64,000 nt of DNA. Source: a virus (taxonomy: Duplodnaviria; Caudoviricetes). The DNA lies in IMG/VR virus record IMGVR_UViG_3300021426_000067; one strand, written 5' to 3'. Shown in pieces: positions 34,540 to 56,299 of this stretch. Both the position numbers and the translations under genes were made by a program. The notes beneath the pieces are model-generated. The model was given only the letters and a program-made list of their open reading frames with translations. It was not told the origin of the DNA and made no database searches. Within the stretch, counting starts at the first letter, position 1. Each line of letters opens with the position of its first letter.

Positions 34540-34570
34540 ATAAGTATAGTATATAATGAAAGGAGTTTTT

Positions 34571-35677
34571 ATGGGAGAAGAAATAAAAAATAAAAATGCG
34601 GGCTTTGAAAATAAAAGACCTTATCCTTTATTAGATAAGACTATTAAAGACCCGCATGAACGTAATGAAATAGTCCATAAAATAGTTGCGGAAGTCCCCC
34701 CAGAAAAATTAACTCCTTATTATTTAGAATAGCTTACCAAATATTTAACAGAAACTCCTGATACAAAAAAGGCGCGGACAGTTTTAACTAACAACCGCAT
34801 GGTTACTGTAACTAAGCGTGAAACTTCTTATGAAGGACTTATTTCAAAATTGGAGAATGGTGAAGATGGTATTTATAATTTTATGACAGGTGGCGATAAA
34901 AATATTTTATTGGTTCCAAAAATACAAATTACAGAAAATGATATAGAGACAATTCCAGGTTTAAAATAGTTAAGAGAAGAAATAAAAAAAGTTGAAGCTA
35001 AACAAAAGACAGCAAAGGGAAGACAAAAATATTTATTAACAAAGCAATTAATTGAAATGCGGCAAGACCAATACGTTTTAAAAAATATTTATAAACCGCC
35101 TATTACAATGATGAAAGTTACAAAAAATCTTCATCAAATTGATTTAAGTTAGCACGTTACGACTAATGAAAAAGGAGAGCCAGAAAGTCATTGTGCTGTG
35201 TCATTTTTTAATCCAGATCATGTTTGTTATCTTTTGTGCAATTATTCTAAAATTAAGGAGGATTGCTGGGGTCATTTTGATAGCGATTGGTGGTATTTCA
35301 TGGAAGACTTTGATGCTCTTGTTGATAGAGCATTAAAAGAACAACATCCTATTTTATATGATATTATGATTTATAAAATTGATGGAATGTTGAATAAAAC
35401 TATATCAGAAAAGATTCAAGAGAAATATGATGCTTATTATACTGTTGAGCATCTTTCCAGTATATGGCGTAAGAAAATACCTAAAATAATTGCGGAAAAG
35501 GCAAAAGAAGAATGGCTTTTATGGCATTACACTATGGAAGAAAAAGGGCATTGGAAAAGATGCTCTCGTTGCCATGAAATAAAATTAGCTCATCCTTACT
35601 TTTATACAAAAAATAAAACTTCTAAAGATGGCTGGTATAGCATGTGTAAATGTTGCAGAAATAAAAAGAAAAATTAA
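34571..35677 (+). CDS. putative regulator (HTH/sigma-region-4-like plus C-terminal Zn finger), 3 in-frame TAG
   Basis: AGGAG RBS, ATG 34571 in frame with 35198-35677; CSRC..CKCC. Confidence 0.6.
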
Positions 35678-35743
35678 GGGCGAAAAATCTAAATTTATAT
35701 AGAAGTTTTTTAAAAGAAAAAGAGAGAAGAAAGGAGGCATTTT

Positions 35744-37084
35744 ATGGCATTAAAGATAAAAGGACAAGTGGAAGATGCCAATGGGAAATGTAAATGTTAG
35801 AGATGCGGTAAGCGGATTGGTCAAATAAACTTTTATACTTATAAAGATGGTAGTAAATGTGAAATTTGCAAACCTTGTTTAACCGCACATATAGATAACT
35901 TTGATCCTACTACTTTTGAGTGGATTCTCGAAAAAATGGATGTACCTTTTATACCTACTGAATGGAATGTTCTTAGAGATAAGGCTTTTGCTAAAGACCC
36001 TTATAAAATGAATGGTATGTCTGTTATTGGAAAATATCTTGCAAAGATGAAATTAAAACAATGGAATAAATATGGATATGCAGATACTCCAAAAATTATG
36101 AAAGAGATGGAGTAGGAAGAAGAAAGAAAGAGAGTTGCTCAATAGACAGAAAGACTTCGCCATGAAGCTGAACTTAAAGTTAAGTTAAGTGAAGGAAAAA
36201 TTTCTCAGGCTTAGTATCAAACTCTTGTTAGCACAGAGACTCAAAATAAAGAGTTGGCGCGATGGGGTAATGCAATTACTGGAGAGCACTTAGGTCAGCC
36301 TGGATTCCAAGTTCACGGTTCCCCGCAATCTTATGCAGAAGCATTAAGTCGAGCAAAAAATCCTTTTCAATAGCAAAATTTCATGTCAGAGAGTTAGTTG
36401 ATTGACCCTGGCGCGGATTTAGAAAAAGATGAAAAAATGTATCTTGCGATTAAATGGGGAAGACTTTATACTCCCGCTCAATGGGTTGCTCTTGAGCAGT
36501 TGTATAATGAATTTATGAACTCTTTTGATATACAGGGCGCCGCCAGAATAGATACTTTGAAAAAAATTTGTAAAACATCTTTAAAGATGGATTAGGCTAT
36601 AGATAGCGGCGATATAGATTCATATCAGAAATTATCAAGAGTTTATGACACTATGATGAAATCCGCAAAGTTTACAGAAGCGCAGAATAAAGATGGTGAT
36701 GGTAAGAATATTGATTCAGCTTCTGCTATTGTAGATTTTGTTGAAGCTCATAGCGGACAAATTCCTCGCATGAAAATTGAAGAGCCTTTGGATATAGTAG
36801 ATAAAATTATTTTTGATTTAAAATCTTATACTCGAAACTTAATTTATGATGATCCTTCTCTTGCTCAAGAAATTGAAAAATATTTACAAGATAAAAGAAT
36901 TTCTGAACAAATGAAAAAAGATAAAGAGGAGGCTGCAGCTAAAGGATTAGATTATGTTCCATTGGAAGATTAGGATATGGTAGTTTATAAAGATACTTTA
37001 AGACATATGTCTGAAGAAGATAAAGAGTTAACTGATGAAAAAATCGAAACAGACTATGGGAAAAGGAGAGTACAACCTAAATGA
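35744..37084 (+). CDS. Zn-finger protein upstream of terminase (terminase small subunit candidate), 8 in-frame TAG
   Basis: AGGAGG RBS; one frame joins 36398-36595 and 36653-36973; ATGA overlap with terL. Confidence 0.6.
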
Positions 37085-38817
37085 ATTTAAAATAGTTATT
37101 ACAACTGTCTTCTGATAGAGAATATAAAAAACAAGGATTATCTGAAGAAAGATTAACTGCAGATATAGATGAGTTAAGAAGAATAATTGCTTTTTTTAGA
37201 GAGTATCCTGATATTTTTGTAGATTTTATTAAAGGCAAAGACAGTACCTTTAATTTTTTATTTTATCAAAGAATTTTTCTTAGAAATGTTATGCGGCATA
37301 GATATGTATATGCAACATTCCCTCGTGCTTATTCTAAGTCTTTCCTATCTATGATGGCTTTAATGATTAGATGTATTCTATATCCTAATTCCCATTTATT
37401 TGTAACAACAGGTGGCAAGGAGCAGGCAGCTTCTATTACTGTTGCTAAAATAGAAGAAATATGTAAATTAATTCCTGGATTAAATAATGAGATAAACTGG
37501 GATAGAGGTGTTTCTACTAAATCAAAAGATAATGTAAAATACGTTTTTAAAAATGGCTCAAGTATTGATATTCTTGCAGCAAGGCAATCTTCGAGAGGAC
37601 AACGTCGAACGGGCGGTCTGATGGAATAGTGTGTTCTTATTGATGGAGATATTTTAAATGAAGTTATTATTCCTACAACAAACGTTGATAGACGTTTATC
37701 AGATGGCAGCCGCCATAAAGAAGAGAACGTAAATAAATCTCAAATTTATATAACAACCGCAGGATGGAAAAATAGTTTTGCTTATCATAAGTTAATATAG
37801 ATTTTAATTAATTCAATAATATAGCCTGATTAGTATATGATAATGGGCGGAACTTATGAAACCCCAGTTATATCTGGTCTTTTGGACGAGAACTTTGTAT
37901 AGCAACTGCGCTTACAAGGAACTTTTAATGATTAGTCATTTAATAGATAGTACAGAAGTATTTGGTCAGGAGATGTAGAAAATGCGTTTTTCTCATCTGA
38001 AAAATTTGATAAATATAGAGTTTTATTACAACCAGAATATTAGTATAGCGGACGCTCATCTAAAAATGCGTATTATGTATTTGGAATTGACGTAGGCCGT
38101 GTGGGTTGTACTACAGAAATTTGTGTATTTAAAGTAACTCCGCAAGTACAAGGAGCTGCTCATAAGACTCTTGTTAATATTTTTACATATGATGCAGAAC
38201 ATTTTGAAACTCAATGTATTCATATTAAACATTTATATTATAAATATAAACCTAAACGAATTGCGGTTGATGCGAATGGATTAGGAGTTGGTTTAATTGA
38301 TTATTTAATTAAGTCTCAAGACACTGAGGATGGATAGTATTTACCTCCTTTTGGAGTTTTTAATACTAATGATTATCCTGAATATAAAAAGTTTGTAACT
38401 CCTGAGACTGTTAAAGATATTTTATTTTTAATCAAAGCTAACGCGCCCATTAATACTGAAGCATATAGCTATGCTCAAACTCAAATGTTTAGTGGTAAAA
38501 TTAGGTTTTTAATAGATGAAGGACAAGCTAAAACTAAATTAATGGCTACTAAGCAAGGGCAAAATATGAATATGGATGAGAGAAATGAATATTTAAGACC
38601 TTTTATTTTAACGTCTATTTTAAAAGAACAAATGTTAAATCTTGTAGAAGAAAATGAAGGAGTTAACATTATTTTAAAACAAAGCAATAGAAGTGTTAAA
38701 AAGGATAAATTTTCAGCTTTTATATATGGATTATATTATATCCGATATGAAGAAGAATTAAGTAAAAAACGAAAGAAAAGAAATATATCAGACTTTTTAT
38801 TTTTCACGCCAAGTTAA
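37081..38817 (+). CDS. terL: terminase large subunit, 10 in-frame TAG (578 aa)
   Basis: FPRAYSKS Walker A variant, GGLME* Walker B, YITTAG coupling motif, GIDVG/VDANG/KDKFSA nuclease motifs; three track fragments in one frame. Confidence 0.9.
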
Positions 38818-38875
38818 GGTCAAGTTTTATTAATTCAATACGCGTTTTTTTATATAAAGATAGAAAGGAGAAAAT

Positions 38876-39238
38876 ATGCGTGCATCCAGAGGAGAAATAA
38901 AAATAGAAGAAATTTTAAAAGAGTCTGGGTTAGAGTTCGCAGAAGAATACTCTTTTCCAGATTTAGTAAGTAACACAGGCCGCCCATTAAGATTTGATTT
39001 TGCGGTTTTTGATGATTAGCATAATCTTGATTTTTTAATTGAATTTCAAGGAATACAGCATTATGAAGCAAAAAGTAAATTTGGTGGGATGAATGGATTA
39101 AGAAAACAACAATATAATGACATGAGAAAAAGAGAATATTGTCGATAGCATGGGATTAAACTGGTTTTAATTCCCTATTGGGAATAGGCTATAATTACTT
39201 ATGATTATATTCTTAATGCGGCTTGGAATACAGATTAA
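38876..39238 (+). CDS. PD-(D/E)XK / Vsr-like (DUF2726-type) endonuclease, 3 in-frame TAG
   Basis: SRGEIKI..LRFDF..LIEFQGIQHY..D..KREYC..IPYW; absent from ORF track because of TAGs. Confidence 0.75.
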
Positions 39239-39254
39239 AGAGAGGTATTTAAAG

Positions 39255-40847
39255 TTGATTAATCGAATGGCTTAGATAAAGAAAAAAGGCTTTAATATGC
39301 CGATTGAAACTGAAGAATACCAAATTCCTGAAAGTGCGAATGGATATGTTCCTATTGACTTTTCAAAAATTCGAGTGGGAGTAAAAACCTTATCAGATGC
39401 CGTTTATAAATTAGGAGATTTTCAAAGAATAAACCCTCGATTAGCAGATAAACGTCAGGTTTTAGAAGCTATTCATTATGGGGATTTAGAAAGAATGAGA
39501 GATATTTCTAATTATTTTTATAAAATCAGTGGTATTTATCAAAGGTTATGTCGATACATGGCATATATGTATAGATATGATTGGTTAGTAACTCCTTATT
39601 ACAGTGAGACTATGAAGCCAGAAAAAATAAAAGAAGGTTTTATGCAAACTTTAACTTTCTTAGATAAGTTTGAAGTAAAACGTTTCTTTGGTGAAGTTGC
39701 ATTAAAAGTAGTTAGAAATGGTTGTTATTATGGATATTTAATTGCTAAGAATGGGACAGTAGTAGTCCAAGAGCTGCCGCCCAGATATTGCAGATCCGTA
39801 TACATATCATCAAATCGGGAGCCTGTAGTTGAATTTAATATGAAATATTTTGATGATGCTTTTCCTTCTATTGAGTTAAGACAAAGAATCTTAAAAATCT
39901 TTCCTGCGGAATTTGAAAAAGGATATAAATTATATAAACAAGGGAAATTAAAACCTCAATATCCTGGAGATTAGGCTGGATGGTATTTACTTGAAGTTGG
40001 CTCTGTTATTAAATTTAATTTTAATGGGGAAGATTTTCCTCCTTTTATTGCAGTAATTCCCGCCATAATAGACCTTGACGCTGCGCAAGACTTAGACCGT
40101 AGAAAAATGGCACAACAATTATTGAAAATAATTATTCAAAAAATGCCTATTGATAAAAATGGTGATTTAATATTTGATGTGGATGAAGCTCAACAACTTC
40201 ATAATAATGCGGTTAAAATGCTTTCTAAAGCTATTGGTATAGATGTTTTAACTACTTTTGCGGATGTTGATGTGGCGGATATGGCTGATAATAAAACTTC
40301 TACTACAACAGATGAATTAGAAAAAGTTGAACGTACAGTATACAATGAAGCTGGTACTTCCCAAATGTTATTTAATACTGATGGAAACATCGCTCTTGAA
40401 AAATCTATTTTAAATGATGAGGCTTCAATGTGGAATTTGATTCAACAGTTTGAAACATTTTTAAACACTCTATTGACACCTTTTAATAAAAGTCCTAAAA
40501 AGGTTACTTATAGAGCGCAAATTCTTCCTACTACAATTTATAATTATAAAGAATTAGCTAAACAATATAAAGAACATACTCAATTAGGTTACTCAAAAAT
40601 GTTACCGCAAATTGCTTTAGGTCAATCTCAAAGTGCTATCTTAACTACAGCTTACTTTGAAAATGATGTACTTGATTTAGTTAATGTATTTATTCCTCCG
40701 CTAATGTCCAGCACAATGAACGCAGAAGTTCTCAATAGAGGAAAAACTGGAGAAAATGCGAATGGAAAAGAAGGCGCAGGAAGACCTGAAAAAGCGGATG
40801 ACCAAAAATCAACAAAGACTATTCAAAATCGTGAATCTATGAATTAA
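39255..40847 (+). CDS. portal protein, 2 in-frame TAG (530 aa)
   Basis: position after terL, size; 39297-39974 and 40107-40847 in one frame; low-complexity tail with GRP motif. Confidence 0.8.
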
Positions 40848-40940
40848 GTCAGAAAATTTTTCCAAAAATTTTGGTCGGAAGTTATTAAAAGATTTGTTTG
40901 AATTTTTATATTATATGAAGAAATAAGGGGGACTTATTTT

Positions 40941-42278
40941 ATGCACCAATCAGTTGCAACAATAGACTCTCCTCAATTCTTAAATCTTCAACCTCTTGAT
41001 ATTAACCCTTTAATGTCAAAATGTGAGATAAAAGTTCTTTATGTAGGAGCTAATAGAAACCGTAGTTTTATTACGGAAGAGGTTGCCGCGGAAATGGGTA
41101 AAACCTTACGTGGCGCGCCTATTGTGGGTTATTATCGTAAGAATAAGGAAGATTTTACAGATCATGGAGAAAAAGTTATTATTGATGATGAAGGAGTAAA
41201 GTTTGAGTGTCAAACGATTCCTTATGGTTTTGTTTCGCCAGATGCTAAAGTTTGGTTTCAAGATTTTGAGGATAATGATGGAATGGGTAATACAGTTACT
41301 CGTAAATATTTAATGACAACTGGTTACCTTTGGACTGGCCAATTCCCAGAATCCAGCTTACCTGTGGAATAGGGTCGTCCGCAATCTATGGAACTTTATG
41401 AAGATTCTGTTAAAGGATCTTGGCAAACAAATTATGATAAAGGAATGGACTTCTTTATTATAAATGATGCAATTATTCAAAAAATTTGTATCTTAGGAGA
41501 CGATGTTGAGCCTTGCTTCGAAGGCGCTTCTGTAACGGCTCCAGATGTAAGTACAAAATTTACATTAGACGACAAATTTAGGCACACACTTTATAGTATG
41601 ATGCAAGAATTAAAGAGTGCCTTAAACGGAGGAGGACAACAGATGGAAAATCTTGAAAACACTGTAACTGCTGAAGAACCTGTTGTTGATTTTACTCAGG
41701 AAAATGCAGCTACAGAAGTTGATGAGAACAAAGATGCTTCTATTCCCGCTGATTTCGTCAAAAAAGATGATGAAGAAAAAGAAGAGAAAAAACCTGCGGA
41801 AGAAGAGAAATCTTCAGATGAAGGAGATAAAGAAAAAGATTCTAAAGATAGTTCTGATGATAAAGAAGATGACGATGATGAAGATGATAAAAAGAAAAAA
41901 GATCAGAAATATGAACTTCTTGAATCTAAATATGCGGCTTTATAGGCTGCATATCAAACTCTTCAAGCCCAATGTGCAGAACTTATTGATTTCAAAAAAT
42001 CAATAGATAATCAGCGTAAGGATGAACTTATTGCAGAATTTTATATGCTTTCTGATGATGATAAAGCAGATGTTATTCGCAATAAATAGAAGTATTCTTT
42101 AGATGAGATTAAAGCTAAATTAGCAATTATTTGCTTTGATAGAAAAGTTAGTTTTAACCCTTCAGAACAGAAAAAAGAAGAAGAAGTTGTTACTTATTCT
42201 TTAAACAATAATGAAAATAACAGTCAACCAGAATGGGTGAGAGCTGTTAAAGAACAAGAAACACTACTTGGATATTAA
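40941..42278 (+). CDS. prohead protease / scaffold fusion, 3 in-frame TAG (445 aa)
   Basis: NRN..PIVG..H..QSMEL..CILG..PCF protease motifs, acidic linker, coiled-coil C-terminus. Confidence 0.75.
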
Positions 42279-42290
42279 TCTATTAGGAGG

Positions 42291-42899
42291 ATGCTAAAAA
42301 TGGCAATTGTAATGAAAAGAATAGGTTATGGACAGGTTGAGCCTAACCACCTTTCTGGTATTGTGACTGGTCAAATTTATGCTCAATTACCTGCTCAGAT
42401 TGCTACAACAACAGGTACAGGAGATACTGCCGTTACTACTATAACTCCTATTGCTCAACTTGAGCAAGGACAATTTGCAAAATATGATTATGCAAATGGC
42501 GCGGTTAACTTTACCGGTGATGGTGAATTTATGCTTGTCTATAATGAAGAAAAACTTTATGATGAAAGACAACAACATCATAAGGATTTCGTTTATAAAG
42601 CTACTGATTTTACTGATGGAAAATTATTCCCTCGTTTAATCAGAACTTATGTTGGAGATATTATGACAACTAATACCCTTGCTACTGCTAATACTTCCAA
42701 TGTTGCTGAGGTAAATTCTTCCCTTAGCGTTTCCGTTGGTAATTATCTGACCGTTGATTCAAACGGTTTCTTAGTAGTTGCTCAGTCTGGCAACTCTGCT
42801 GCTACTACAATGCCTTCAAGTGGTATGGTTTGGAAAGTTGTTAAAGAATACACAATGCCAGATGGACAACCTGGTATTAAAATTCAGAGAGTGCAATAA
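42291..42899 (+). CDS. capsid decoration / minor head protein
   Basis: between scaffold and MCP; no TAG. Confidence 0.6.
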   Translation: MLKMAIVMKRIGYGQVEPNHLSGIVTGQIYAQLPAQIATTTGTGDTAVTTITPIAQLEQGQFAKYDYANGAVNFTGDGEFMLVYNEEKLYDERQQHHKDFVYKATDFTDGKLFPRLIRTYVGDIMTTNTLATANTSNVAEVNSSLSVSVGNYLTVDSNGFLVVAQSGNSAATTMPSSGMVWKVVKEYTMPDGQPGIKIQRVQ

Positions 42900-42922
42900 T
42901 AAGGAATAGGAGGAAATAGAAA

Positions 42923-44011
42923 ATGGCATTAACAAGAGATCAACTTATTGAGTTAGCCAGAGCCAATGCGAGAGCTTCATTAAATCCTTCTGTCGCTTAC
43001 TCTTTTGGCGGAGAAAAACTGTCAGCAGAGGCACTGGATAAAACTTTTATTAAGGAGTTAAATGAATTAGGTGCAACTCCTCAAGCATTTAGAGAAAATA
43101 AAAATCTTATTTATACATTAATTGAAGTAAGCCTTACAGAGATTCTTCCGCCTAAGGTTCTTCAAAGCTACGGTCAATTCGCGGATGTTCAAACTTTTGC
43201 TCAAGGTACAAAACCTGTTTATAAAGTTAGAATTAGCGAGGCTTCTAAGAAACGTGCTAAACAATTCGTTACAAGAGTTGGTTTAGCTGGTCGTTATGAA
43301 GTCTTCAAACTTGATGGATATTCACTTGAAGTTCCTACAGCAGCTTTCGGAGGAGCTTCCAGGGTAGAATGGGAAGAACTTCTTGATGGTCGTATGACAA
43401 TGAGCGATTACTACAACTTAGTTCTTGAAGGAATGGACGAAGCTGTTTATCGTGAAATTGCGAAAGCTCTTGAAGCTACAGTTGCTGGTATTAAACCTGC
43501 AAATAAAACTGTCCAAACTGCTTTTAATGAAAAAGCTATGGATCAATTACTTATGACTGCAGATATGTATGGAAAGAGTTCAATTTATTGTACTTTTGAA
43601 TTTGCGGCAACTATGATTCCTGCAGCAAATAGTGGTATGTGGTCTGACAGTATGAAAGAGCAAATTTGGAACAATGGCGCATTTGCAAATTATAAAAACC
43701 ATTCAGTAATTATTCTCCCTCAATCTTTCACAGATGAGACTAATACTGAAAAAGTCATTGATCCTTCTTATGCTTGGATTATTCCTAATGGTGCGGAGAA
43801 ACCTGTAAAAGTTGCTTTTGAAGGTTCAGCACAAGTTAAATCATTTGAGAACCGTGACTGGTCAACAGAAATTCAGACATACCAAAAACTGGGTGTAGCT
43901 ACTTACATGATTAATCCTGGTATTTGCGTATATCAAAATACTTCTTTAAAGAAAGCTATCCATTATCCAATTGGATCTGATAACTTCGATCCCGTACCAG
44001 TTAATCCTTGA
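42923..44011 (+). CDS. major capsid protein
   Basis: 362 aa, strong AGGAGG RBS, synteny, followed by terminator; no TAG. Confidence 0.8.
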   Translation: MALTRDQLIELARANARASLNPSVAYSFGGEKLSAEALDKTFIKELNELGATPQAFRENKNLIYTLIEVSLTEILPPKVLQSYGQFADVQTFAQGTKPVYKVRISEASKKRAKQFVTRVGLAGRYEVFKLDGYSLEVPTAAFGGASRVEWEELLDGRMTMSDYYNLVLEGMDEAVYREIAKALEATVAGIKPANKTVQTAFNEKAMDQLLMTADMYGKSSIYCTFEFAATMIPAANSGMWSDSMKEQIWNNGAFANYKNHSVIILPQSFTDETNTEKVIDPSYAWIIPNGAEKPVKVAFEGSAQVKSFENRDWSTEIQTYQKLGVATYMINPGICVYQNTSLKKAIHYPIGSDNFDPVPVNP

Positions 44012-44032
44012 TGATTAAATAAAAATGTGAAT

Positions 44033-44065
44033 ATGGGGAGAATGAGTAATTCTCCCCATTTTTTT
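44033..44065 (+). terminator. intrinsic terminator
   Basis: ATGGGGAGAAT..ATTCTCCCCAT plus T tract. Confidence 0.8.
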
Positions 44066-44094
44066 ACTATAAGAGATAAAAGGAGTTTTTAAAT

Positions 44095-44667
44095 ATGATT
44101 AATAAAGATACATTAATAAAAGTTACTAATAAATATAATGGAACAGTGGGTTATGATGTTCCTGATTTAATGGTGCATAGAGAATTTTATCCAGGAGAGT
44201 ATAAAGAAATTACTTTTGAAGAATTAGAAAAACTTTCTTTTGCACCAGGCGGAGACGTTATTTTAAATCAATTTCTTGAAATTGATAATAAAGATGCGGT
44301 AATGAGTTTATTTGGAAAAGAACCAGAACCAGAATATTATTATACAAAAGCAGATATACAAGAGCTTATGTTGAAAGGTTCGTTAGACCAATTTTTAGAT
44401 TGTTTAGATTTTGCTCCAGAGTCAGTTAAAGAAATTATTAAAGACTTGGCGGTAGAATTACCTTTAAATGATGTAGCAAAAAGAGATGCCATTAGAGATA
44501 AAATGGGTTTTGATGTTTCAAAAGCAATTGAAATTAAAAATACTAAATTTGATGGCGGTGATGAAGATACTTCAGGAAATAAAACTCAGACAAAAAGACG
44601 TGCTCCCGCGCCTAAGGCGGCGCCCGCTCCATCAGGTCGTCGATACACTCCCGCTTCTAAAGAATAA
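44095..44667 (+). CDS. hypothetical virion-module protein
   Basis: 190 aa, AGGAG RBS. Confidence 0.65.
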   Translation: MINKDTLIKVTNKYNGTVGYDVPDLMVHREFYPGEYKEITFEELEKLSFAPGGDVILNQFLEIDNKDAVMSLFGKEPEPEYYYTKADIQELMLKGSLDQFLDCLDFAPESVKEIIKDLAVELPLNDVAKRDAIRDKMGFDVSKAIEIKNTKFDGGDEDTSGNKTQTKRRAPAPKAAPAPSGRRYTPASKE

Positions 44668-44688
44668 TTTTTTATAGGGGGTATATAA

Positions 44689-45246
44689 ATGAATACAACT
44701 TCTTTTTCACTTGTATATGACTCCTTCCTTTCAAAAATTACAGATGATATGTATTTAGAACTAACGGAGCTTGATACATTTAGAATGTTAGAACAGCTTT
44801 TATGTTCTGCTATTGAGAGATTTGAATTTCCACGAGTAAATATATGGGATTATGATTTATTTGAAATTGAAGATGAAAGAACTTATTGTGGCGTAGAAAG
44901 CCAAAATATAGAAGTCCCAGTAATTATTTATAGTGGAGGATATTTTAATAATCCGTTGACGCATGAAGAAATTAATATATTATCTCATTATATGATTGTA
45001 GAATGGTTAAGTCAACAACTTGCCAGTGTAGAAAATACACGCATGAAATATAGTGGTTCAGATTTTAAATTTACCTCTCAAGCAAATCATATGCAAAAAC
45101 TTCTTCAATTGAAAAAGGATTATGAAAGAGAGGGCTTTCATCTTCAACGTTTATATAAAAGAAGAAAACAGGATAAAAATGGCATTATGAGATCTACTTT
45201 TGATGTTATTATGCGACCTGTGACTTATACAACTGATTTAAATTAA
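44689..45246 (+). CDS. putative head-tail adaptor
   Basis: synteny; helical 185 aa. Confidence 0.55.
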   Translation: MNTTSFSLVYDSFLSKITDDMYLELTELDTFRMLEQLLCSAIERFEFPRVNIWDYDLFEIEDERTYCGVESQNIEVPVIIYSGGYFNNPLTHEEINILSHYMIVEWLSQQLASVENTRMKYSGSDFKFTSQANHMQKLLQLKKDYEREGFHLQRLYKRRKQDKNGIMRSTFDVIMRPVTYTTDLN

Positions 45247-45270
45247 TTTTAAAATTGGAGGGTAAAATTA

Positions 45271-46623
45271 ATGGCTTAGATTTCAAAAATTACCTTACCT
45301 TCTGGTGTTACGTATGACTTAAAAGACGCCCAAGCGCGTTCAGACATTGAGGCTTTACAAACCAGTGTTACAGGTGGTATGCACTATATTGGTGTTACCA
45401 CAACTGCATTAACAGATGGAGCAACTACAAATCCTATTAAAATTAATAATGCTGATGTTACTCCTAAAGCGGGTGACATTGTTATGTATGGAAGTTTAGA
45501 ATTTGTATGGGCAAGTAGTGATGGAAAATGGCATGAATTTGGTTCAACAGGCTCTTTAAAAAGTTTAGCTTTTAAAGATAGTGCTTCTGGAAGTTATACT
45601 CCAGAAGGAAGTGTTTCACCTACTTTTAAAGGCTCTCAAACAGGAGTTACTATTACAGTAGCAAATAATACAAGCGGAAATTATACACCTGCAGGAACTA
45701 TTACTGCTCCAACTTTTACAGGACAGTCAATGACTTCAACTGGGTCTTATACTCCTGCGGGAACTGTCGATATTAGTGTTACTAAAACTGAAGGACAATC
45801 TGTTACAGTTTCGGCGGCTTCTTCAGGTACTATAACATATACTCCTAAGGGAAGTATTGGTACTATTAATTTTACTGGTGAAAATACTGCTTTCTCTGGG
45901 ACTTATACTCCAAGTGGAACAGTAAGACTTACTGGAAAAACTCCTACAACTACAACAGTTTCTTCTGCTAATTCTGGAACTGCGACTTACACTCCTGCGG
46001 GTAGTATTCAAGTTCCTATAAAAGTAAAAACTGCGGGGACTACAGCTACAATAAAAAATCCTTCTACAATTCGAACTGTAGCAAAAACTGTAGTGGCTGC
46101 CGCGCCAGGAGCAACTGCGCCAAGTAATAATTTAACTTATTATAATGTAACAGGAGAAACTTTATCTTTATACCAATTAGGCTATACAACGGATGCGGCT
46201 ATTTCAACCAGTAATGTAACTGTAAAAACAGGAGACGCAGCATATGAGGCTGACTCTCCTACTTTCCAAGGAACTGGAGCCAGATTAGTTACAGATAGTT
46301 TCGATATCCCTACAACAGCTGCTTTTGAAGGAACAGAGGGAACTGTAAATGTTTCAGGAACTCCGCTTGGAAGTGTAAATACTCCAGCCTTCACAGGAAC
46401 TGGAGTTAGACTTGTTACAGGAAGTATTTCTGTTCCTAAGACTATTTCTGGTGGATTCCATGGAACAGAAGCTACTATTTCTGTTACTGGAACTACAACA
46501 GGACAAGTAGGAGCACCTACATTTAATGGTACTAAAGTTCAAATTAGTGGTACAACAACTGCGGCAGGTACTATTGAAAATACTGAATTTGTTGGTACAC
46601 CAAAAACTGTTACAGTATCTTAA
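45271..46623 (+). CDS. Thr/Gly-rich repetitive structural protein (head fibre/decoration), TAG at codon 3
   Basis: GGAGG RBS before ATG GCT TAG ATT; repeated YTPxG and PxFxG motifs. Confidence 0.7.
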
Positions 46624-46644
46624 TAAGGAAGGAGGGCGCCGATT

Positions 46645-46794
46645 ATGGCAGATATTTCAGAAATTATCCTTCCTAACGGAAATCAATATGATTTAAAAGA
46701 TAAATTGGCAGCGCATGTTGTATTTTCATAGACTCAACCGACAACCCAAAAAACTGGTGACGTTTGGGTAATTATAGAAGAAGTTGAAACATAA
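46645..46794 (+). CDS. 49 aa protein sharing N-terminus with 45271 gene, 1 in-frame TAG
   Basis: MADISEIILPNGNQYDLKD versus MA*ISKITLPSGVTYDLKD. Confidence 0.6.
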
Positions 46795-46825
46795 GGGCGT
46801 CATTGGAAATTTGGAGGGTTAAGTT

Positions 46826-47155
46826 ATGATATTAAAATATAATATAGATATAGGAAATAATGTAATTTCCCATAGATTGCAAAATCTTATTAATCAAATT
46901 TATAAACTCCTACCCAGTCGAGAAGAAGGAATAGATTGGGAAAAACCTTTAGAAACTATTATGGAAGAATTAGCGGGATTAGAAAGATTAATGGATGGCG
47001 GCTATCCGGAAATCTTTCTTCCGCTACTTAGTAAATTAGAAGGACTCTTTTTATTAACTGACGTTGAAGATTTTTCTTGTTATAGAAGAACTATTTTTGA
47101 ATGTTTAGGATTAATGAATGAGTTAAAGAAAGAATTATGTCCTTAGAATTATTAA
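46826..47155 (+). CDS. hypothetical virion-module protein
   Basis: TAG 47144 followed three codons later by TAA 47153. Confidence 0.6.
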
Positions 47156-48120
47156 ATAAAAGATTACAATATCAGGGCGGTAATCAATAGCAAAGATTCA
47201 TTAATGATAAATTAAGAGGTTTAAAACGCGCCCTGTTATATTCTTATCAAGCCGCGACCGCTATTTTAGCAGATGGTAAAGAGTTTAGATGTTTGATTAA
47301 TCCAGATAAAAATAAGCCTGCTTATGATAATAAAATTCTTTCAATCCCATATAAAGATATTTGTTTAAATATGCCAAGAATAGGTAAAACTATTGAAGGA
47401 GAAATTCCTATTGATATTAAACCTGGTGATGTTTTTGTTTGGAAAGAAACAAATACTCATTGGTTAGTTTATTTATAGTATATTGAAGAGGATGCTTATT
47501 TTCGTTCATAGATTCGTAGATGCGATCAATAGATAAAAGTAAATAATGAAGAATATTGGGTTTATATTAGAGGTCCTGTTGAAACATCGATAGAATGGAC
47601 TCAGAAGTCAGGAATAGAATGGAATACATTAAACTATTCTTTAGTTATGTATATAACCGCTGATGAAAATACTAATAATTATTTTGAAAGATTTCAAACT
47701 GTAAAAGTAATAGACCCAAGATATAATACAGAAAAAACTTGGCAAATAGTAGGCGTTGATCCTTATTATGGTGATGGTATTTTACAAATCTTTTTAGATG
47801 AATTTTTTGAGAATCCTATTGCAGATGCTGAAAAAGAATATCAAAAAGAACATTATAAATAGAAAATAATAGATGAAACACAACCTTATATCAGCGGCCC
47901 CACAACTGTTTCACAATATAGTAAAGCATATTTTGAAATTCATAATGTGAGTAATGGGCACTGGTACTTAAAATGGGATGGAAAAGAACAAGATTTGCAT
48001 AGTTCTTTAAATATTATTCCGTTAAATATTTCTATGGGAAAATTAGGAATATTTACGTTAATATATAGAATCGAGGGGTAGGAAGATATTACTCTTGATG
48101 TCAAGATTACCGCTCTATAA
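47137..48120 (+). CDS. putative head-closure/neck protein, 6 in-frame TAG
   Basis: one frame joins 47293-47478 and 47647-47862; synteny. Confidence 0.65.
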
Positions 48121-48149
48121 GGAAGAGATAAAAGGAGTAGACAAAACAT

Positions 48150-48755
48150 ATGAAAAAAGATTTAGCTTTAAGACCAACTGATTTTACTTCATCTTTTTTA
48201 TCATGTGAAAAAGATTTAGAATCAATTTTAAGAAAATTGTTTGTAGAAAGTCAACCTTATAGTAATTAGCTAAAAAAATTATTAGTTATTAACACTAAGG
48301 ATTGTTTAGATAATAAAACCAGTTAGGTTTATAATAATGCAATAAAAGATATGAGTCTTGCAAAATTGCGGGAATAGGGTTATATTAAATTTGAACCTAA
48401 AGTAAAAATGCCAGAACATGAAGATATAAAAAGTTATTTAATTTTTTCTTTTGATAATTTTAAATCTAATTATAATAATCCTCAATTTAGAGATTGTAAT
48501 GTTTATATTGATGTTCTTTGTCATACTGACTATTGGGATTTAGGAGGTTTTAGGCTTAGACCTTTAAAGATTTGCGGTTATATTGATGGCATTTTAAATA
48601 ATGCGCGTTTATCAGGAATTGGAATGTTTCAGTTTTCGGGATGTAATGAATTAGTTCTTGATGAAACTCTATCTGGTTATACATTATCTTATGCCGCTAT
48701 TCATGGCACAGACGATGTTTTACCAAGTCAGCATAATTGGGTGAAGAATGGTTGA
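48150..48755 (+). CDS. putative tail completion/terminator protein, 3 in-frame TAG
   Basis: AGGAG RBS, in frame with 48408-48755. Confidence 0.6.
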
Positions 48756-49500
48756 TGAATTACTTTTATTATCAGGTAATGATATACCCTTTCCCGAAGC
48801 AAAATTAACGATTCATCAACCGCGTTTAAAAGAAATTGCATATCTTACTTAGACTAACTTTTGGCCAAGCTGTTAGTTATTAAAATTTAATAAAGAATCT
48901 TTAATAGATTAGGACAGAATTGGATTAACGAATATGTCAAATTTTAATATAATAATGACGATAGTTCAAGGGAAAGATTTAGAAGCAAGACAAGCAAAAA
49001 TAAATATGCTTTCTCTTTTGACTTTATTATTTCCTACAAGCGAGATTATTTTAAATAAGAAAGTAATTCAAATACGAAATGTTTAGACTGGTGAAACAAG
49101 TTAGATTAATTAGTAGAATTATGATTCTTTTAAAAAAATCTTAGTTACAATGTTTTGTCTCACGAATAAAGATAATGAATAGTATAATCCAAGCGGTGAC
49201 TTAGCTCGTAAAATTGCTAATAAAATTAAGCAAGGTAGAGAGCAAAGGGCGAAGCTGGCGCCAGAAGGTAAAGTTGCTATTTTAAGTCGTTATGTATCTA
49301 TTCTTGCTGTTGGTTAGCAGAAAGATATGAATGACTTAATGAATTATACTGTTTATCAACTCATGGATGAATTTAACCGTTTTAATTTAAAACTTCAATA
49401 TGATTCTTGGTAGAAATTTAAAATTGCGGGAGCCACAGGGATGAAAGATCCAGAAGATTGGCTAAAAGACATTCATGAAATAATAAATAATGAAACATAA
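48748..49500 (+). CDS. virion-module protein with 10 in-frame TAG including TAG-TAG (250 aa)
   Basis: 753 bp with no TAA/TGA in frame; fills the gap before the tail tube gene; missing from ORF track. Confidence 0.7.
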
Positions 49501-49532
49501 TATTTTGTACAAAATATAAGGAGGAAATCCAA

Positions 49533-50486
49533 ATGAAATTTGGTTTACGTGAAATTGCTAATGTAGTTTTCAAAGCAAAAAACGACCAGCAGATCGGACC
49601 TTATACATTTAAAAAGGGACAACCTGTGTTTTATATTGATTCTGCAAAAACATCAACTGTAGAAGGAGCAGCTACTACAGTATATGCAACTGGTGGACGC
49701 GGTAACACTCGTTTAATTGCTTGGGAAGGTGAAAAAACTTTAACATTTACTGTTGAAGATGCTCTTCTTTCTCCTGTAAGTTTCTCAATGCTTTCTGGTG
49801 CTGGTCTTTTGAAAGGTGCTGCTGATTCTACAAACAAAATTCATTTCCATCAAACTACTAATGCTGTTATTAGTACAGCTCAAGGTGGCGGAAAAGAGAT
49901 TGATTTAACAGATGCTTTAGAGAGTGGAGAGGAAATTTGTGGAACTGCTCCTATTTATGTTATCAAATTAGATGAATTTGGTGATTTAACTGGTGAAATT
50001 ATTGAAGGATGCACTGTTGCAACAGGTGGTAAAAAAGTTACTCTTGGACAAGACGCAACTGCAACAGGACCTGTTATGGTTGACTACTATGTATTAAAGA
50101 ATGAAGGTACTGTATCAGAACTTCAAATTGATGCTGGTAACTTTGGTGGATATTACTACGTAGAAGCCGATACATTATTCAGACGTCAGGCGGACGGTAA
50201 AGACTTACCTGCTAATATTACATTCCCTAACGTTAAAATTCAGTCTAACTGGACATTCACAATGGCGGCTACTGGTGATCCAAGTACATTTACATTTACT
50301 ATGGATGCGTTCCCTGGTTATACATATTTTAACCGTACTAACAAAGTGCTTTGCGCTATCCAAATCGTAGATGATGCGACAGAAGTTAAATCTAATGTTA
50401 AACCTCTGTTCCCTCATCCTGCTGGATTTGATATTGACGAATCTAAAACAGATTCTGTTTCGGGATCAGATGAATCTAATATTTGA
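49533..50486 (+). CDS. major tail (tube) protein
   Basis: 317 aa, AGGAGG RBS, FTMAATGDPSTFTFTMD motif, terminator follows; no TAG. Confidence 0.7.
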   Translation: MKFGLREIANVVFKAKNDQQIGPYTFKKGQPVFYIDSAKTSTVEGAATTVYATGGRGNTRLIAWEGEKTLTFTVEDALLSPVSFSMLSGAGLLKGAADSTNKIHFHQTTNAVISTAQGGGKEIDLTDALESGEEICGTAPIYVIKLDEFGDLTGEIIEGCTVATGGKKVTLGQDATATGPVMVDYYVLKNEGTVSELQIDAGNFGGYYYVEADTLFRRQADGKDLPANITFPNVKIQSNWTFTMAATGDPSTFTFTMDAFPGYTYFNRTNKVLCAIQIVDDATEVKSNVKPLFPHPAGFDIDESKTDSVSGSDESNI

Positions 50487-50506
50487 TACTAATTAACAAT
50501 TAAATA

Positions 50507-50536
50507 AGGGGAACTTTTATAGTTCCCCTCTTTTTT
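50507..50536 (+). terminator. intrinsic terminator
   Basis: AGGGGAACT..AGTTCCCCT plus T tract. Confidence 0.8.
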
Positions 50537-50551
50537 ATTAGAGGAAAAAAT

Positions 50552-51901
50552 ATGAGTGCTTTAGGAGATTATATTCATTTATATACTTCACATTATTTAG
50601 ACCACGGTACAAAAAGAAAAACTGGATCAAATGAACCTAACTATAGTATAGATATAATTAATAATAGAATAACAACAAATGTTAAACCTATTAATTTATC
50701 AGCAATTAGTGAGCTTGAAAGAAAATTAAAATTAAATTCTGATTTAAAAGAAAATCAAGAATTAACTAAAGCTGAAGAATAGAGACAAAGATTAATAGAT
50801 ATTTGTTATCAATTATTATATGAACGAAGTCAAAGAATAGATGGAATTAAAAGAGTGGCAAAAGTTGCTAAGGGTGGTGAAATATTTTCTAAAGGTGGTA
50901 AGAAAATCGCCTTAGGAGATCAAACTTGGGCAGCGCATATGACTCATGCACAATTAAAATAGCTTAGTGAAAAAGCTAATGCTATATATCGTGAAATTCA
51001 AAAATTAATAAATAAAATTAATAATACTTATGGACCATATTCTTATGATGATTTTACAAAACTTGTATCTTTATTTAATGAATATACTCATTTAGCTAAA
51101 GACCCAGATAGTTCTACAATGGGTGAAATTTTACGAGCTTTAAAAGTTTATAGATATAAAGGTGCAGTAAATGAAATTTCAGGCAACTTTGGAGAAATGA
51201 TGGTAGCTATTTGTGATGATGCTTGTAACGATTTAGCTGAAGAATAGGTAAAAAAAGTAATAACTGAAGCTATTGTTGGACAGTAGAGAACAGCTATTAG
51301 ATTTAATAAAAATTTAATTTCTACTGGTTATAATTTCATGGGAACTAATCCTGATGATCAAAACCAATATTCTTTAGGATCAACGCAAAATAAAGTAGAT
51401 GTGCGAATAAAAATAAATGATGAAAATGTTTATGCAAGTGTAAAAACTTCTCAAGATGTTTCTAAAAATCCTCGTCCAAAATTACAAGATGTTAATTTAT
51501 TAGTTTCTTTAACTTTTTTAAACAGTTATCCTGGATTAGAAGATTTTGGTAACCATTGGTTAAATATGCACGTTATGCACACAAGTCATAATAAACAAAA
51601 GATATTAGATGAAATACTTAAAAAAGAAATTGCTTATGAGGCGCTTTCAAGTGGTAACCCTTTTAAACAAAACGTAGAAAGTGCAAATGTTTTTGTATAC
51701 ATTAACAGAGCAAATGGAAAAGTATATGTTCAATCAGTTCAAAAACTTTTAGATGATATGGATAGAATAGGTGGATTAAAAGAAATACCACAATTACATT
51801 TTAAAAATGAAAGACAAGATGAAATATGGCAACGTATCAATGATATTTTGGCTCAAGTTCATGCAACAAAATTACAAGTTGCTATGAATATTATTTATTA
51901 A
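50552..51901 (+). CDS. hypothetical protein, 4 in-frame TAG (449 aa)
   Basis: 50552-50782 and 51338-51901 in one frame; GNFGE..KVDV..SVK could be PD-(D/E)XK-like. Confidence 0.6.
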
Positions 51902-51929
51902 TAAAAAAGAGATAAAAGGAGATTTTATT

Positions 51930-52493
51930 ATGAAAGTATCTTATGCTAATATGAAATTAAAAGTAAATACAGATGTTAATACTTTTGATTTTCATGGACA
52001 AACAATAGAAGTGTTAAAATATCTTCCTGCAAGAGATAAATATGATTTATTAATGATTACTTTGCAGAAAGCATAGAACGCAGATGGTACATATAATGAT
52101 TTTTTATTAAATCTTTATTTTGAATTAAATTTAGTTTATATGTATACTAATATTTCTTTTACAGAAAAACAGCGGGAAGATGAATTTAAACTATATGATT
52201 CTTTACAAAGTAATGGCTTTTTTAAAGAATTTTATGGAGCAATCGACGAAGATGAATATAATGAGTTGTATACACAACTTAATACTATAAAAAATACTAA
52301 TACTATTAATAGAAATAGTGTAGGCGGACTTCTTAATAAAGTTATTAGCGACCTTCCTGCAAATGCAGAAGCAGCTGCTAAGATTGTTGAAAACTTCGAT
52401 CCAAATCAATTTAAGTCAGTTGTTGATTTTGCAACATGGGCAAATGGTGGAAGAAGTATTGTAACTAATCAACCAATGCCGCCTATGAATTAA
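51930..52493 (+). CDS. hypothetical protein (possible tail assembly chaperone), 1 in-frame TAG
   Basis: AGGAG RBS, in frame with 52140-52493. Confidence 0.6.
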
Positions 52494-53230: not shown

Positions 53231-53491
53231 TTAAATACATTTTACAATTATTTTATTTGCGTTATATTTCGTTAATTCTTTTTCTTGAATTTCTTTAACA
53301 ATTCTCTATGAAAACTGTTTTGCGCCAGATAAGTCTACCTATTGAATATCATAAGTATATGCTAATTCAATTATATCTTCTGAGATATTATTTAATTTAC
53401 TATATCTCATTTCAAGTTTATTTCCATCCTAATAAACATAAAGACGTTGACATATATCAAATGGATGAATAATCCCAATAATTTTTTTCAT
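53231..53491 (-). CDS. hypothetical protein, 3 in-frame TAG
   Basis: AGGAG RBS; MKKIIGIIHPFDICQRLYVY*DGNK; fills gap between neighbours. Confidence 0.65.
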
Positions 53492-53898: not shown

Positions 53899-54381
53899 TT
53901 AACAAATTTTTTTAGCATATTGATTATTTGATGATAATTTTACCCCCAACACTTCATCAAAATGCGGTTTTTGATTAGGTATAAATCTTCCAAATTTAAT
54001 TATAATATTTGAAAATATTTCTTTTAACGCACTTACTTCTTTAGAAATCTCATCCTCATTATAACCAGTATAAATTACTACATCATCTTGATTATGGTAT
54101 TGATGTTGAAACCAAAGAAGAAAATTATTTATTTCTCCAAAAGAATCAAATGGTTCTAATCCTTGGAAAACAATTGCTTCAGTAATAGGATTGTTTATAT
54201 ATCTAATAATAATGCTTTCACAAGAAATGTCGATATTTGGTTCTTTTACCAAAGAACTATTTTGACATACTGGTTGACCACATTCTTTATCACATTTAAA
54301 ATTACAATAAGGAAATTCAATTACCATTGAGGGTTTTTTATAATTTACAAAATCTTCATCAATTAATCCTTTTATTATCAT
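53899..54381 (-). CDS. nrdG: anaerobic RNR activating radical SAM protein
   Basis: CNFKC..C.N, GLEP, IYTGY, KFGRF, SNNQ; adjacent to nrdD. Confidence 0.85.
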   Translation of the reverse strand: MIIKGLIDEDFVNYKKPSMVIEFPYCNFKCDKECGQPVCQNSSLVKEPNIDISCESIIIRYINNPITEAIVFQGLEPFDSFGEINNFLLWFQHQYHNQDDVVIYTGYNEDEISKEVSALKEIFSNIIIKFGRFIPNQKPHFDEVLGVKLSSNNQYAKKIC

Positions 54382-56299
54382 TAATTGGCTCCCATCTTCT
54401 CATATTATATTCTAACTTTCTATGAGCAGACCAAGTTCTGATTGGAGTATAAAATCCTACAACTCTGGTGTATTCTCCCGCAATTGGTTTTCCACATACT
54501 GGACAAGTTGTTCCATAGAAAGCATGATTATCTTCACAAACTTGAATTTTTGTATTAAAGGCAAAATAAGTAACACCCTGGTCTGCAATATATTTAACCA
54601 TTTTCCATGCTTGATCAAAATTAGAAAATGGTGCATCAATATTAGCATGTAAGATAGAACCTCCATTACAAAAATGATCGAATTGTGCTTGGATTCTTAC
54701 TCTTTCTTGTAAAGTAGTTTTGATACCAAGAGGAATAAACTGATTTCCATATAGCGGTAAATCATATATATTTGCGTTAGGATAAAAGAATTTGTCTTTT
54801 TTCATAAGTTTATCTGCCGCAGTTTCTCCAGGAATCTGTTCTGTGTTAATCTTATAATTCAAATTATATTTGTCAATAAAGTTATCCGCAGTTCTTCTTA
54901 TTGTTTGGAATATTTTTTCTCCAAATTTAGCAGCATTTTCTGTATAGAAAGTATTACCTAATTCATCTTTTGTAATATATCCAAAATGTTTCATTGTTTC
55001 ATATATACCTAAGAATCCAATTGTATTATATAAATGTTCAAAATCAATTAATCCATATTTAAAATTAGGTAAAAGTCCTTTATCAACATTTCTTTTAATA
55101 ATATGACGAACACAATCTAAGGCTTGAAGACATACATTAGTTCTTCTTTCAAGTTCTACTAAATACTCTTCTTCTGAATTGGTATCTAAAGCAAGTCTTG
55201 CTAAATTAATAGTATTAACTTTTACTGAGCCAACCTTAAGAGCTGTTCCACCAATAGAATTAAAGTAGCCTAAATCTCTAATATCGGATTTTAAACGACA
55301 GCAATTAGATAAACTATTAACACTATCATCTACAAATAAATTACTGTCTGACCATTTCATATTATGTTGAATTGCCCAACGCGCGAACTCATCATCTACA
55401 AATTCTCCATCTTGATATAATAAAGAAATAGTGCTAACTGGAAATGTCATCATATTTTCTGAACGAATTTGAGACATTGTTTCCATATATATTTTTTGAA
55501 AAGCAATAATTTCTTCTTCATAATCAATCATAAAACTTCCATCAGGAAAAGTGCTTCCGCCAAATAGAGCTTCAAAATAAGGTCTATCAAATACAGAAGT
55601 ATTGGTAAATGCGGATTGAGATCCGTCTCTAACATAAGGTTGATTCACTGCATAGATAAATCTTTGGAAGTTCTGAATAGCATATTTTTCAGGATTGCCT
55701 TCCCAATATTTTTCTTCAATATCTTTCTTCCAAAAATAATACATATAAGGAATTAAGTTTGGTAGTCCAACCGCGCCAGAAGTCCTGTTGCTTGTATATG
55801 AAATAAATTCTTTTACAAAATCTACAAATGTACCTAAGTGCCGCGGCGGTTTTGCATTAAAATTTTTACCAAGGAAAAAAAGTCCTTTTTCAGCAAGTTC
55901 TTTCAAATCATAAGCAAAACAATAACTTTTAAAAGTACATGTGTCTGAATCGTGCATATATAAAGCACCAATCCATTCTAATTTAAGCCATTCGTTAGCT
56001 GCTTTAAAACCATATTTTTTTTGCATTTCATAATAAATTTTATTAAATGCTAACAATTTTCTATGAGACTTTGGCATCTCATTTAGTAAAGTAACTATAT
56101 CTTTATGTGATACATTTGAATTACCATCAATACTGGCATCCGCAACTGTGTCCTCTTGAATAAAGTTACTAATAAAATCATTATATGACAACTGTTCATC
56201 TGCAAAACCATTTATTTTTGCAATATCAGTTCCATATTCAGCTTGAAGTCTGTTATAAGCTGTTGTAAAATTTTTGTTTAATCTAATTGATATATCCAA
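54359..56299 (-). CDS. nrdD: class III anaerobic ribonucleotide reductase
   Basis: SNCCRL finger loop, C-terminal CPVCG and YTRVVGFY glycyl-radical motif. Confidence 0.93.
   Translation of the reverse strand: MDISIRLNKNFTTAYNRLQAEYGTDIAKINGFADEQLSYNDFISNFIQEDTVADASIDGNSNVSHKDIVTLLNEMPKSHRKLLAFNKIYYEMQKKYGFKAANEWLKLEWIGALYMHDSDTCTFKSYCFAYDLKELAEKGLFFLGKNFNAKPPRHLGTFVDFVKEFISYTSNRTSGAVGLPNLIPYMYYFWKKDIEEKYWEGNPEKYAIQNFQRFIYAVNQPYVRDGSQSAFTNTSVFDRPYFEALFGGSTFPDGSFMIDYEEEIIAFQKIYMETMSQIRSENMMTFPVSTISLLYQDGEFVDDEFARWAIQHNMKWSDSNLFVDDSVNSLSNCCRLKSDIRDLGYFNSIGGTALKVGSVKVNTINLARLALDTNSEEEYLVELERRTNVCLQALDCVRHIIKRNVDKGLLPNFKYGLIDFEHLYNTIGFLGIYETMKHFGYITKDELGNTFYTENAAKFGEKIFQTIRRTADNFIDKYNLNYKINTEQIPGETAADKLMKKDKFFYPNANIYDLPLYGNQFIPLGIKTTLQERVRIQAQFDHFCNGGSILHANIDAPFSNFDQAWKMVKYIADQGVTYFAFNTKIQVCEDNHAFYGTTCPVCGKPIAGEYTRVVGFYTPIRTWSAHRKLEYNMRRWEPINDNKRIN

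Follow-up and report, generated by a model that had tools for sequence, protein, structure and literature searches.

TAG as a probable glutamate codon in the late genes of an SPbeta-like phage of the cattle rumen

In phages whose genetic code differs from that of their host, only two changes have been seen, TAG to glutamine (Gln) and TGA to tryptophan (Trp) (Borges et al., 10.1101/2021.08.26.457843), and the partition of TAG into the late genes of TAG=Gln phages has been read as a means of delaying late-gene translation (10.1101/2021.08.26.457843). Here we describe a 64,000-nucleotide stretch of the IMG/VR virus record IMGVR_UViG_3300021426_000067 (Duplodnaviria; Caudoviricetes), hereafter the window, in which the large terminase gene and neighbouring packaging and virion genes are interrupted by in-frame TAG codons that most likely stand for glutamate (Glu). 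The window covers about one half of the genome, some 130-145 kb long, of an SPbeta-like phage of the cattle rumen. In a full-text literature search, no publication turned up that describes TAG=Glu in a phage or a bacterium.

The TAG-recoded gut phages assigned to genetic code 15 (crAss-like, Lak, Agate, Garnet and Phass-1; Borges et al., 10.1101/2021.08.26.457843, Peters et al., PMC9523058, PMC10607447) resemble the window phage in concentrating TAG in late and structural genes while keeping early and replication genes free of it. They also encode, within the lineage, a suppressor transfer RNA (tRNA) with the anticodon CUA, and no phage aminoacyl-tRNA synthetase has been found in them, as here. 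Yet TAG is Gln in these phages, including Phass-1 according to its authors (PMC10607447), whereas it appears to be Glu in the window, and the Phass-1 suppressor has U1-A72 and G73, whereas that of the window's clade has a tRNA-Glu-type body without U1-A72. Glutamate is the meaning of UAG in two eukaryotic codes (NCBI tables 30/31; peritrich ciliates and Blastocrithidia), which employ a tRNA-Glu-derived suppressor, as proposed here. Those organisms, however, belong to lineages unrelated to this phage and have reassigned UAA as well, genome-wide, whereas TAA is the main stop in the window (63 of 99 open reading frames) and TAG is a sense codon in part of the genome. SPbeta-like siphoviruses (Enterococcus phage H1, Geobacillus virus E3, Lactococcus 949-like) have the gene order and protein families of packaging and virion functions in common with the window, and their terminases are 32-45% identical to its own, but they use the standard code. 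Late-gene recoding of a stop codon with a phage suppressor tRNA is of a known kind; the amino acid and the type of tRNA are new.

The meaning of TAG in the terminase and other late genes

The large terminase gene, of the SPbeta YonF type, occupies positions 37081-38817 on the plus strand; its 578 codons include 10 in-frame TAGs and no in-frame TAA or TGA. A reading made from the sequence alone (the sequence-only reading) had proposed that TAG means Glu rather than Gln, starting from a TAG in the Walker B motif of this gene. We confirmed that this TAG, at 37627-37629 in the context T-G-G-L-M-E-TAG-C-V (37609-37638), is in frame as codon 183, at the Walker B catalytic position, and the same is true of the frame of the other TAGs on which that reading drew (37948, 38041 in PEY-TAG-Y, 36593, 47476, 49111/49114, 49315, 45277, 53429, 56823 and 63787). 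The column of codon 183 is E in 39/39 standard-code relatives and in 47/47 full-length terminase cluster representatives, collected by an exhaustive profile-free search and 28-68% identical, so the expectation that standard-code homologs would not tolerate Gln at this position was borne out. Within the clade of the window the codon is GAA in 23 sequences, TAG in 10 and GAG in 8. A second terminase TAG, codon 290 at 37948-37950 (plus strand), lies in SFNR-TAG-Y (F-x-R-TAG-Y), and its column is E in 38/38 standard-code relatives and in 40 of the 47 representatives.

The identity of the terminase was taken from its fold, because Pfam and PDB sequence searches with the single sequence or with a 13-sequence profile returned zero matches; in phage relatives the homologues bear the annotation YonF or large terminase. 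Forty-seven diverse homologs served to build an AlphaFold model, whose mean predicted local distance difference test (pLDDT) score was 89.3 and whose top Foldseek match was T4 gp17 (E 6e-17), followed by the large terminases of D6E, Sf6, HK97 and P74-26. In the model, residues 80-87 (FPRAYSKS) form a P-loop between a strand and a helix, and residue 183 comes directly after a strand at 178-182, which is the geometry of Walker B; the predicted structure has both the Walker A lysine and the Walker B acidic pair closing a beta strand. R82, K86 and E183 are invariant. Motif, strand position and invariance, rather than a residue-level superposition, suggest that residue 183 is the Walker B acidic position.

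For comparison across all genes, window genes were translated with X at TAG and aligned by tblastn to all related loci, and the subject codons were read. In relatives of at least 80% identity, window TAGs face GAA 259 times, TAG 175, GAT 78, GAG 61 and CAA 4 times, and CAG never. In the reverse direction the TAGs of relatives face GAA (268), TAG (175), GAG (78), CAA (11) and CAG (5) in the window. The TAG columns of homologs are thus dominated by Glu, as the sequence-only reading had supposed. We then compared all 20 residues at TAG columns in a likelihood test that uses an empirical substitution table derived, locus by locus, from the alignments' own sense codons. Glu was the best residue in 83/83 related loci, and in close relatives it exceeded Gln by 30-80 natural-log units. 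Fourteen TAG columns are at least 70% conserved in the standard-code outgroup (up to 39 sequences), 11 of them as Glu and 3 as Gln. Among the 47 terminase representatives, the pooled TAG columns (E 0.37) look like the Glu columns of the window (E 0.32, Q 0.05) and unlike its Gln columns (Q 0.27, E 0.12).

The method was also run on phages' own TAGs as a control. Those of the window's clade score Glu throughout (for example 52 of 77 sites in L062), those of Phass-1 score Gln, in agreement with its published code, and those of the related locus L070 score Trp at 14 of 20 sites, QIYITTAG-TAG-KNSFAY facing ...GWKN.... Since the control runs give three different answers, the test does not just return the commonest residue. 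To our knowledge, TAG=Trp has not been reported in phages. Every comparison favours Glu, and TAG is very probably a sense codon for Glu in this phage; the fuller explanation, in which a tRNA-Glu-derived suppressor reads it, is highly probable too, if by a shade the less secure of the two.

The CUA suppressor tRNA and its charging

No CUA tRNA was found within the 64-kb window, the sole tRNA of which is a tRNA-Asp(GUC) at 18048-18123 on the minus strand. Synteny with the complete relative G001 places the tRNA array just left of the first base of the window. The tRNA-Glu-like CUA suppressor that the sequence-only reading predicted is present in complete relatives, and it resembles tRNA-Glu rather than tRNA-Gln: six complete or near-complete genomes (G001 to G006; terminases 87-92% identical) carry one tRNA-CUA each, in arrays of 9-25 tRNAs, that of G001 lying at L115:4858-4931. 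Six copies, from five of those relatives and from a phage fragment binned in a rumen metagenome-assembled genome (MAG), fold into a cloverleaf with compensatory changes in 10 of 20 pairs, while G2-U71, U11-A24 (6/6) and the loop CUCUAAA are invariant. U11-A24 and an augmented D helix are determinants for glutamyl-tRNA synthetase (GluRS) (PMC9976931).

The isotype signal of the tRNA-CUA comes from structural features only. Of 185 phage tRNAs, none but tRNA-Glu (9 of 12) and the clade's tRNA-CUA (five of six) combine G2-U71 with A73, the copy of G006 having G2-U71 with C73; tRNA-Gln in the same set mostly has U1-A72, G2-C71 and G73. Five copies of the tRNA-CUA have C-G as their 1:72 pair and one has G-C; U-A is seen in none. 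A 3-bp D stem and the 11-nt loop RAGYGGYTTAA are common to the tRNA-CUA and the phages' own tRNA-Glu(UUC), and the copy of G004 has the GUCU/GGAC stem and the 4-nt variable loop of a classical tRNA-Glu. The features of tRNA-Gln and of substrates of the amidotransferase GatCAB (U1-A72 and a small D loop) are missing, the D loop being 11 nt.

Codon-level and tRNA-level readings agree lineage by lineage. The annotated tRNA-Sup-CTA of Phass-1 (L292:3748-3821) has U1-A72 and G73, and the suppressor of G007, the genome that holds L070, has its acceptor stem and T arm in common with the genome's own tRNA-Trp. The CUA tRNA of L070 (IMGVR_UViG_3300028805_000058, a 146-kb phage) is 93 nt long (L134:4263-4355), with an insert of ~26 nt in the variable region. 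A further CUA tRNA was seen in G009, the genome holding L054 (L138:4213-4286), which nonetheless has 0 in-frame TAGs in its aligned late genes; ARAGORN draws this tRNA with a U-A first pair and a 9-nt D loop, and an acceptor-stem parse gave a different first pair. ARAGORN also calls tRNAs with a UUA anticodon, predicted readers of TAA, in G001 (L115:6223-6297) and G008 (L135:5566-5636), and predicts a transfer-messenger RNA-like gene with the tag peptide ADNYTYQMAA at the end of the tRNA array of G004 (L118:5804-6081).

We propose that the tRNA array just outside the window supplies a CUA tRNA on a tRNA-Glu body, which would be charged with Glu by the host's own GluRS. The host enzyme is invoked because a search of five complete or near-complete relatives (G001 to G005) yielded no gene for GluRS or glutaminyl-tRNA synthetase (GlnRS); it yielded no release factor gene either. 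CUA differs from CUC, a natural tRNA-Glu anticodon that is present in these phages, only at position 36, and a GluRS that also serves tRNA-Gln would already tolerate a change at this position. Such tolerance, as in the indirect Gln-tRNA pathway (non-discriminating GluRS followed by GatCAB), would explain the charging of the CUA tRNA; that pathway ends in Gln, whereas the phage tRNA seems made to go no further than Glu. The bacterial GatCAB identifies its substrates by U1-A72 and by the D loop (PMC2811023), and G1-C72 and U20a act as antideterminants (PMC9976931). Lacking the U1-A72 and small D loop that GatCAB needs, as well as the G73 of tRNA-Gln, the tRNA may keep its Glu: with C1-G72 and a large D loop, a Glu-charged tRNA should stay Glu, and the same acceptor features would also argue against GlnRS. 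The absent U1-A72 and the large D loop would fit the idea, raised in the sequence-only reading, of an escape from amidation by GatCAB. Translation of TAG-bearing late genes might then have to await a build-up of the CUA tRNA, as has been suggested for phages with TAG=Gln. This charging route, from a tRNA-Glu-derived suppressor through the host GluRS and with no conversion to Gln, seems to us reasonably likely.

Several points weigh against TAG=Glu with a tRNA-Glu-derived suppressor. The Glu meaning comes from comparative sequence data rather than from peptides, and the CUA tRNA of the window phage itself is deduced from relatives with terminases 87-92% identical and from synteny. All copies of the tRNA-CUA except that of G004 have a G13/A22 mismatch and a 5-nt variable loop, and so depart from the U13-G22 and the missing position 47 of E. 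coli tRNA-Glu; C34 and A36 stand in for U34 and C36, two strong determinants for the E. coli GluRS; and overall identity, at 0.64-0.74 to many phage tRNAs, singles out no isotype, tRNA-Glu not being the nearest. Nor does the proposal account for the completion of a 10-TAG protein in competition with the release factor 1 (RF1) of the host.

The last of these points concerns three TAG sites (36212, 36593 and 47476) that fall at conserved-Gln columns of the standard-code outgroup. Two of them had been singled out as Gln-like in the sequence-only reading, which holds for the outgroup. The TAG at 36593-36595 (plus strand) faces Q in 29/34 outgroup sequences, yet the clade has GAA (19), TAG (15) and GAG (3) there. 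That at 47476 faces Q in 16/17 outgroup sequences and is variable among 10 clade relatives (AGA 3, GAG 2, TAG 2, and AAG, GAA and CAA 1 each). The third, 36212, is GAA/GAG/TAG within the clade, with just 2 CAA. Since the codons of the clade are GAA/GAG/TAG at 36212 and 36593, the clade carries Glu at these two sites at least. It is possible that Gln changed to Glu by way of TAG at the three sites, which would imply a past stage of TAG=Gln.

Alternative explanations

The alternative that survives best is that the phage mirrors the code of its host, one of the uncultured Clostridia of gut or rumen that may already decode TAG as Glu and have no RF1; the phage tRNA would then only boost a rare codon. 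The amino acid meaning would be the same, and the difference would lie in its origin and in how far the phage tRNA is needed. Bacterial genomes scanned with a pattern for CUA tRNAs (at least 52 tRNAs, two of them relevant among the matches listed) yielded a chromosomal tRNA-CUA in an uncultured Clostridia MAG (G011; L215:7798-7873) that is a paralog of the tRNA-Glu(CUC) in the same genome. With CGCCCCA/UGGGGUG and A73, its acceptor stem comes very close to that of the phages (CGCCCGA/UCGGGUG with A73). This bacterial tRNA also has a tRNA-Glu-type D stem and an encoded CCA end. Only RF2-like pieces and no RF1 were found in the MAG, which counts for little because the MAG is incomplete; were RF1 absent from the host, the completion of the 10-TAG protein would be explained. 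Against this, nothing links the window phage to the G011 bacterium, and replication genes free of TAG (0/191 Glu codons), together with a tRNA-CUA of the phage lineage, form the pattern of recoded phages of standard-code hosts (10.1101/2021.08.26.457843). TAG-free replication genes and a tRNA of the phage's own argue for a standard-code host and do not prove it. The sole hint on the host from binning is a 3.3-kb contig of 'uncultured Ruminococcus sp. RUG14215' (L159), a fragment of a phage tRNA array with a CUA tRNA of the same type, part of which is 96% identical to G001; it may be either a binning artefact or a weak hint of the host. We regard a mirrored host code as rather unlikely.

Decoding might instead be ambiguous, and the proteins mixed, if the CUA tRNA accepted both Glu and Gln or if a suppressor of the host inserted a further residue. 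Amber suppressor tRNAs are indeed often mischarged with Gln by GlnRS (PMC9976931), the three TAG sites at outgroup-Gln columns could be seen in this light, and comparative data cannot see mixtures. Even so, the tRNA-CUA is without all the acceptor-end features of tRNA-Gln (U1-A72, G2-C71 and G73), an exchange of TAG with CAA or CAG within the clade was almost never seen, the clade has GAA at 36212 and 36593, two of the three outgroup-Gln columns, and TAG occupies the position of a catalytic Glu from which no homolog departs. Ambiguity of this kind appears improbable in the face of TAG read as Glu.

Still less probable, to the point of being doubtful in the extreme, is the ordinary code 15 (TAG=Gln) under which public pipelines annotate these contigs. 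No other reassignment of TAG has been described for phages (10.1101/2021.08.26.457843, PMC9523058), the database proteins of the clade are TAG=Q translations, and the relative Phass-1 does use Gln. However, Gln was rejected in all 83 likelihood comparisons, CAA and CAG are nearly absent from the TAG columns of close relatives, and Gln would displace the Walker B catalytic Glu, which is invariant at 47/47; the clade's tRNA, moreover, is of Glu type, whereas the Phass-1 suppressor has U1-A72 and G73.

That the TAGs are true stops, in broken or misassembled genes or with occasional read-through, has nothing in its favour beyond a standard-code reading, and is hardly credible given homology and conservation across all TAGs, 175 TAG:TAG pairs between independent assemblies and a dedicated tRNA-CUA conserved through compensatory changes. 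Pseudogenes, assembly error and TAG=Gln were accordingly rejected as candidates on the grounds of homology across the TAGs, independent contigs and Glu-dominated columns.

Relatives, annotation and gene layout

The phage collection contains 120 records with this terminase. Among them are a fragment from the human gut, unannotated and 75% identical, and phages of Enterococcus, Geobacillus, Alicyclobacillus, Bacillus and Lactococcus that use the standard code (31-46% identity). Phass-1 (OQ749652.1), filed at NCBI as 'Caudoviricetes code 15 clade', is there too, a distant relative with a terminase 44% identical to that of the window. IMG/VR contributed 79 related loci, with several genomes of 130-146 kb bearing terminal repeats. 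Overlapping metagenome contigs include L132, 98.5% identical and reaching 726 bp further left, and L130, 89% identical. Contigs from ENA at 95-97% identity are named after cattle rumen assemblies, and the late region of a 144-kb ENA contig is 95% identical to that of the window. The Pfam families YonG_N, YonD_N, YonB, YomW and YomV are recorded on the same late genes in near-identical contigs; these families and the contig names identify a rumen phage with SPbeta-like morphogenesis genes.

In a quick maximum-likelihood tree of the terminase, in which branches are long and deeper placements unsure, the TAG=Glu clade of the window (23 rows) is monophyletic with a Shimodaira-Hasegawa-like approximate likelihood ratio test (SH-aLRT) value of 100. 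Its sister clade is mostly standard-code, yet it holds L053 (TAG=Glu) and L070 (TAG=Trp), and Phass-1 (TAG=Gln) lies outside both. This suggests that one phage family underwent repeated and different TAG reassignments. The locus L053 (IMGVR_UViG_3300026549_000406) is a 13-kb contig whose TAGs align with Glu at 9 of 11 sites, which hints at a second origin or at a transfer of the trait. It is probable that this SPbeta-like family of gut and rumen phages reassigned TAG several times, to Glu in the window's clade and separately in L053, to Trp in L070 and to Gln in Phass-1, each time through a suppressor derived from the matching tRNA and with host synthetases only.

Public collections (ENA, NCBI and Logan; for example P0002, P0045, P0068 and P0075) hold the terminases of the clade as TAG=Gln translations. 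The closest public terminase has Gln at 9 of the 10 TAG positions of the window, its match being recorded 'with_TAG=Q', and 29 of the 120 closest database entries have Gln at the Walker B catalytic position. Only two outcomes of phage recoding have been reckoned with, TAG=Gln and TGA=Trp, and table 15 is the default of gene callers and databases for any read-through of TAG. Should TAG=Glu be correct, it would be a natural viral genetic code missing from the NCBI tables and from the phage literature, and the table 15 rule would be wrong for a widespread rumen clade of at least 40 IMG/VR contigs, with many more among 7,939 matched proteins. Annotation as 'code 15' would then place Gln at Glu positions, a catalytic residue included, in many public phage proteins, and structure prediction, family models and proteomic searches on these proteins would be affected. 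It would also mean that a bacterial GluRS can serve a CUA tRNA in nature, offering a natural Glu amber suppressor for genetic-code engineering, and that close relatives reading TAG differently provide a tractable system for changes of codon meaning.

The G+C content of the window is 34%. Its late block of packaging and virion genes (34556-52493, plus strand) comprises 18 genes with 55 in-frame TAGs, which make up 12% of Glu codons; these genes are TAG-interrupted under the standard code and open once TAG is read through. Four late genes, of YonB type and neighbours (42291-45246, plus strand), are free of TAG, and together with the gene at 49533-50486 they have 0 TAGs and 86 Glu codons; the five presumably encode the most abundant virion proteins. 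Outside the block, a helix-turn-helix protein gene (8045-8812, plus strand) has 8 TAGs. No TAG occurs in the minus-strand genes for DNA polymerase III alpha (57161-61081, 96 Glu codons), anaerobic ribonucleotide reductase (NrdD; 54359-56299) and a superfamily 1 helicase (61993-63174). The six replication-side genes that include these three have 0 TAGs among 191 Glu codons (P about 2e-11 at the TAG share of the late block). Alignments to relatives run through every TAG, and since homology is unbroken across all of them while the replication genes have none, the in-frame TAGs are not due to chance. A 4.1-kb IMG/VR contig 99.6% identical to the window carries the TAGs, as do three ENA rumen contigs at 95-97% identity; the occurrence of the same TAGs in near-identical independent contigs shows that they are not assembly errors.

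Elsewhere on the minus strand, a dATP/dGTP diphosphohydrolase-like gene (56574-56948) has one TAG, at 56823-56825, and a small gene (53231-53491) has three. In the latter, VY-TAG-DGNK (53429) aligns with VYEDGNK in G001, and PQLIM-TAG-DYEI (63787) likewise aligns with PQLLMEDYEI in that relative, so that sites beyond the late block point to Glu as well. With TAG called as sense, the 99 open reading frames end in TAA (63) or TGA (36), and few early genes end in TAG even under the standard code. One small early gene, at 61721-61990 on the minus strand, ends in a TAG followed immediately by TAA, a tandem stop that terminates under either code.

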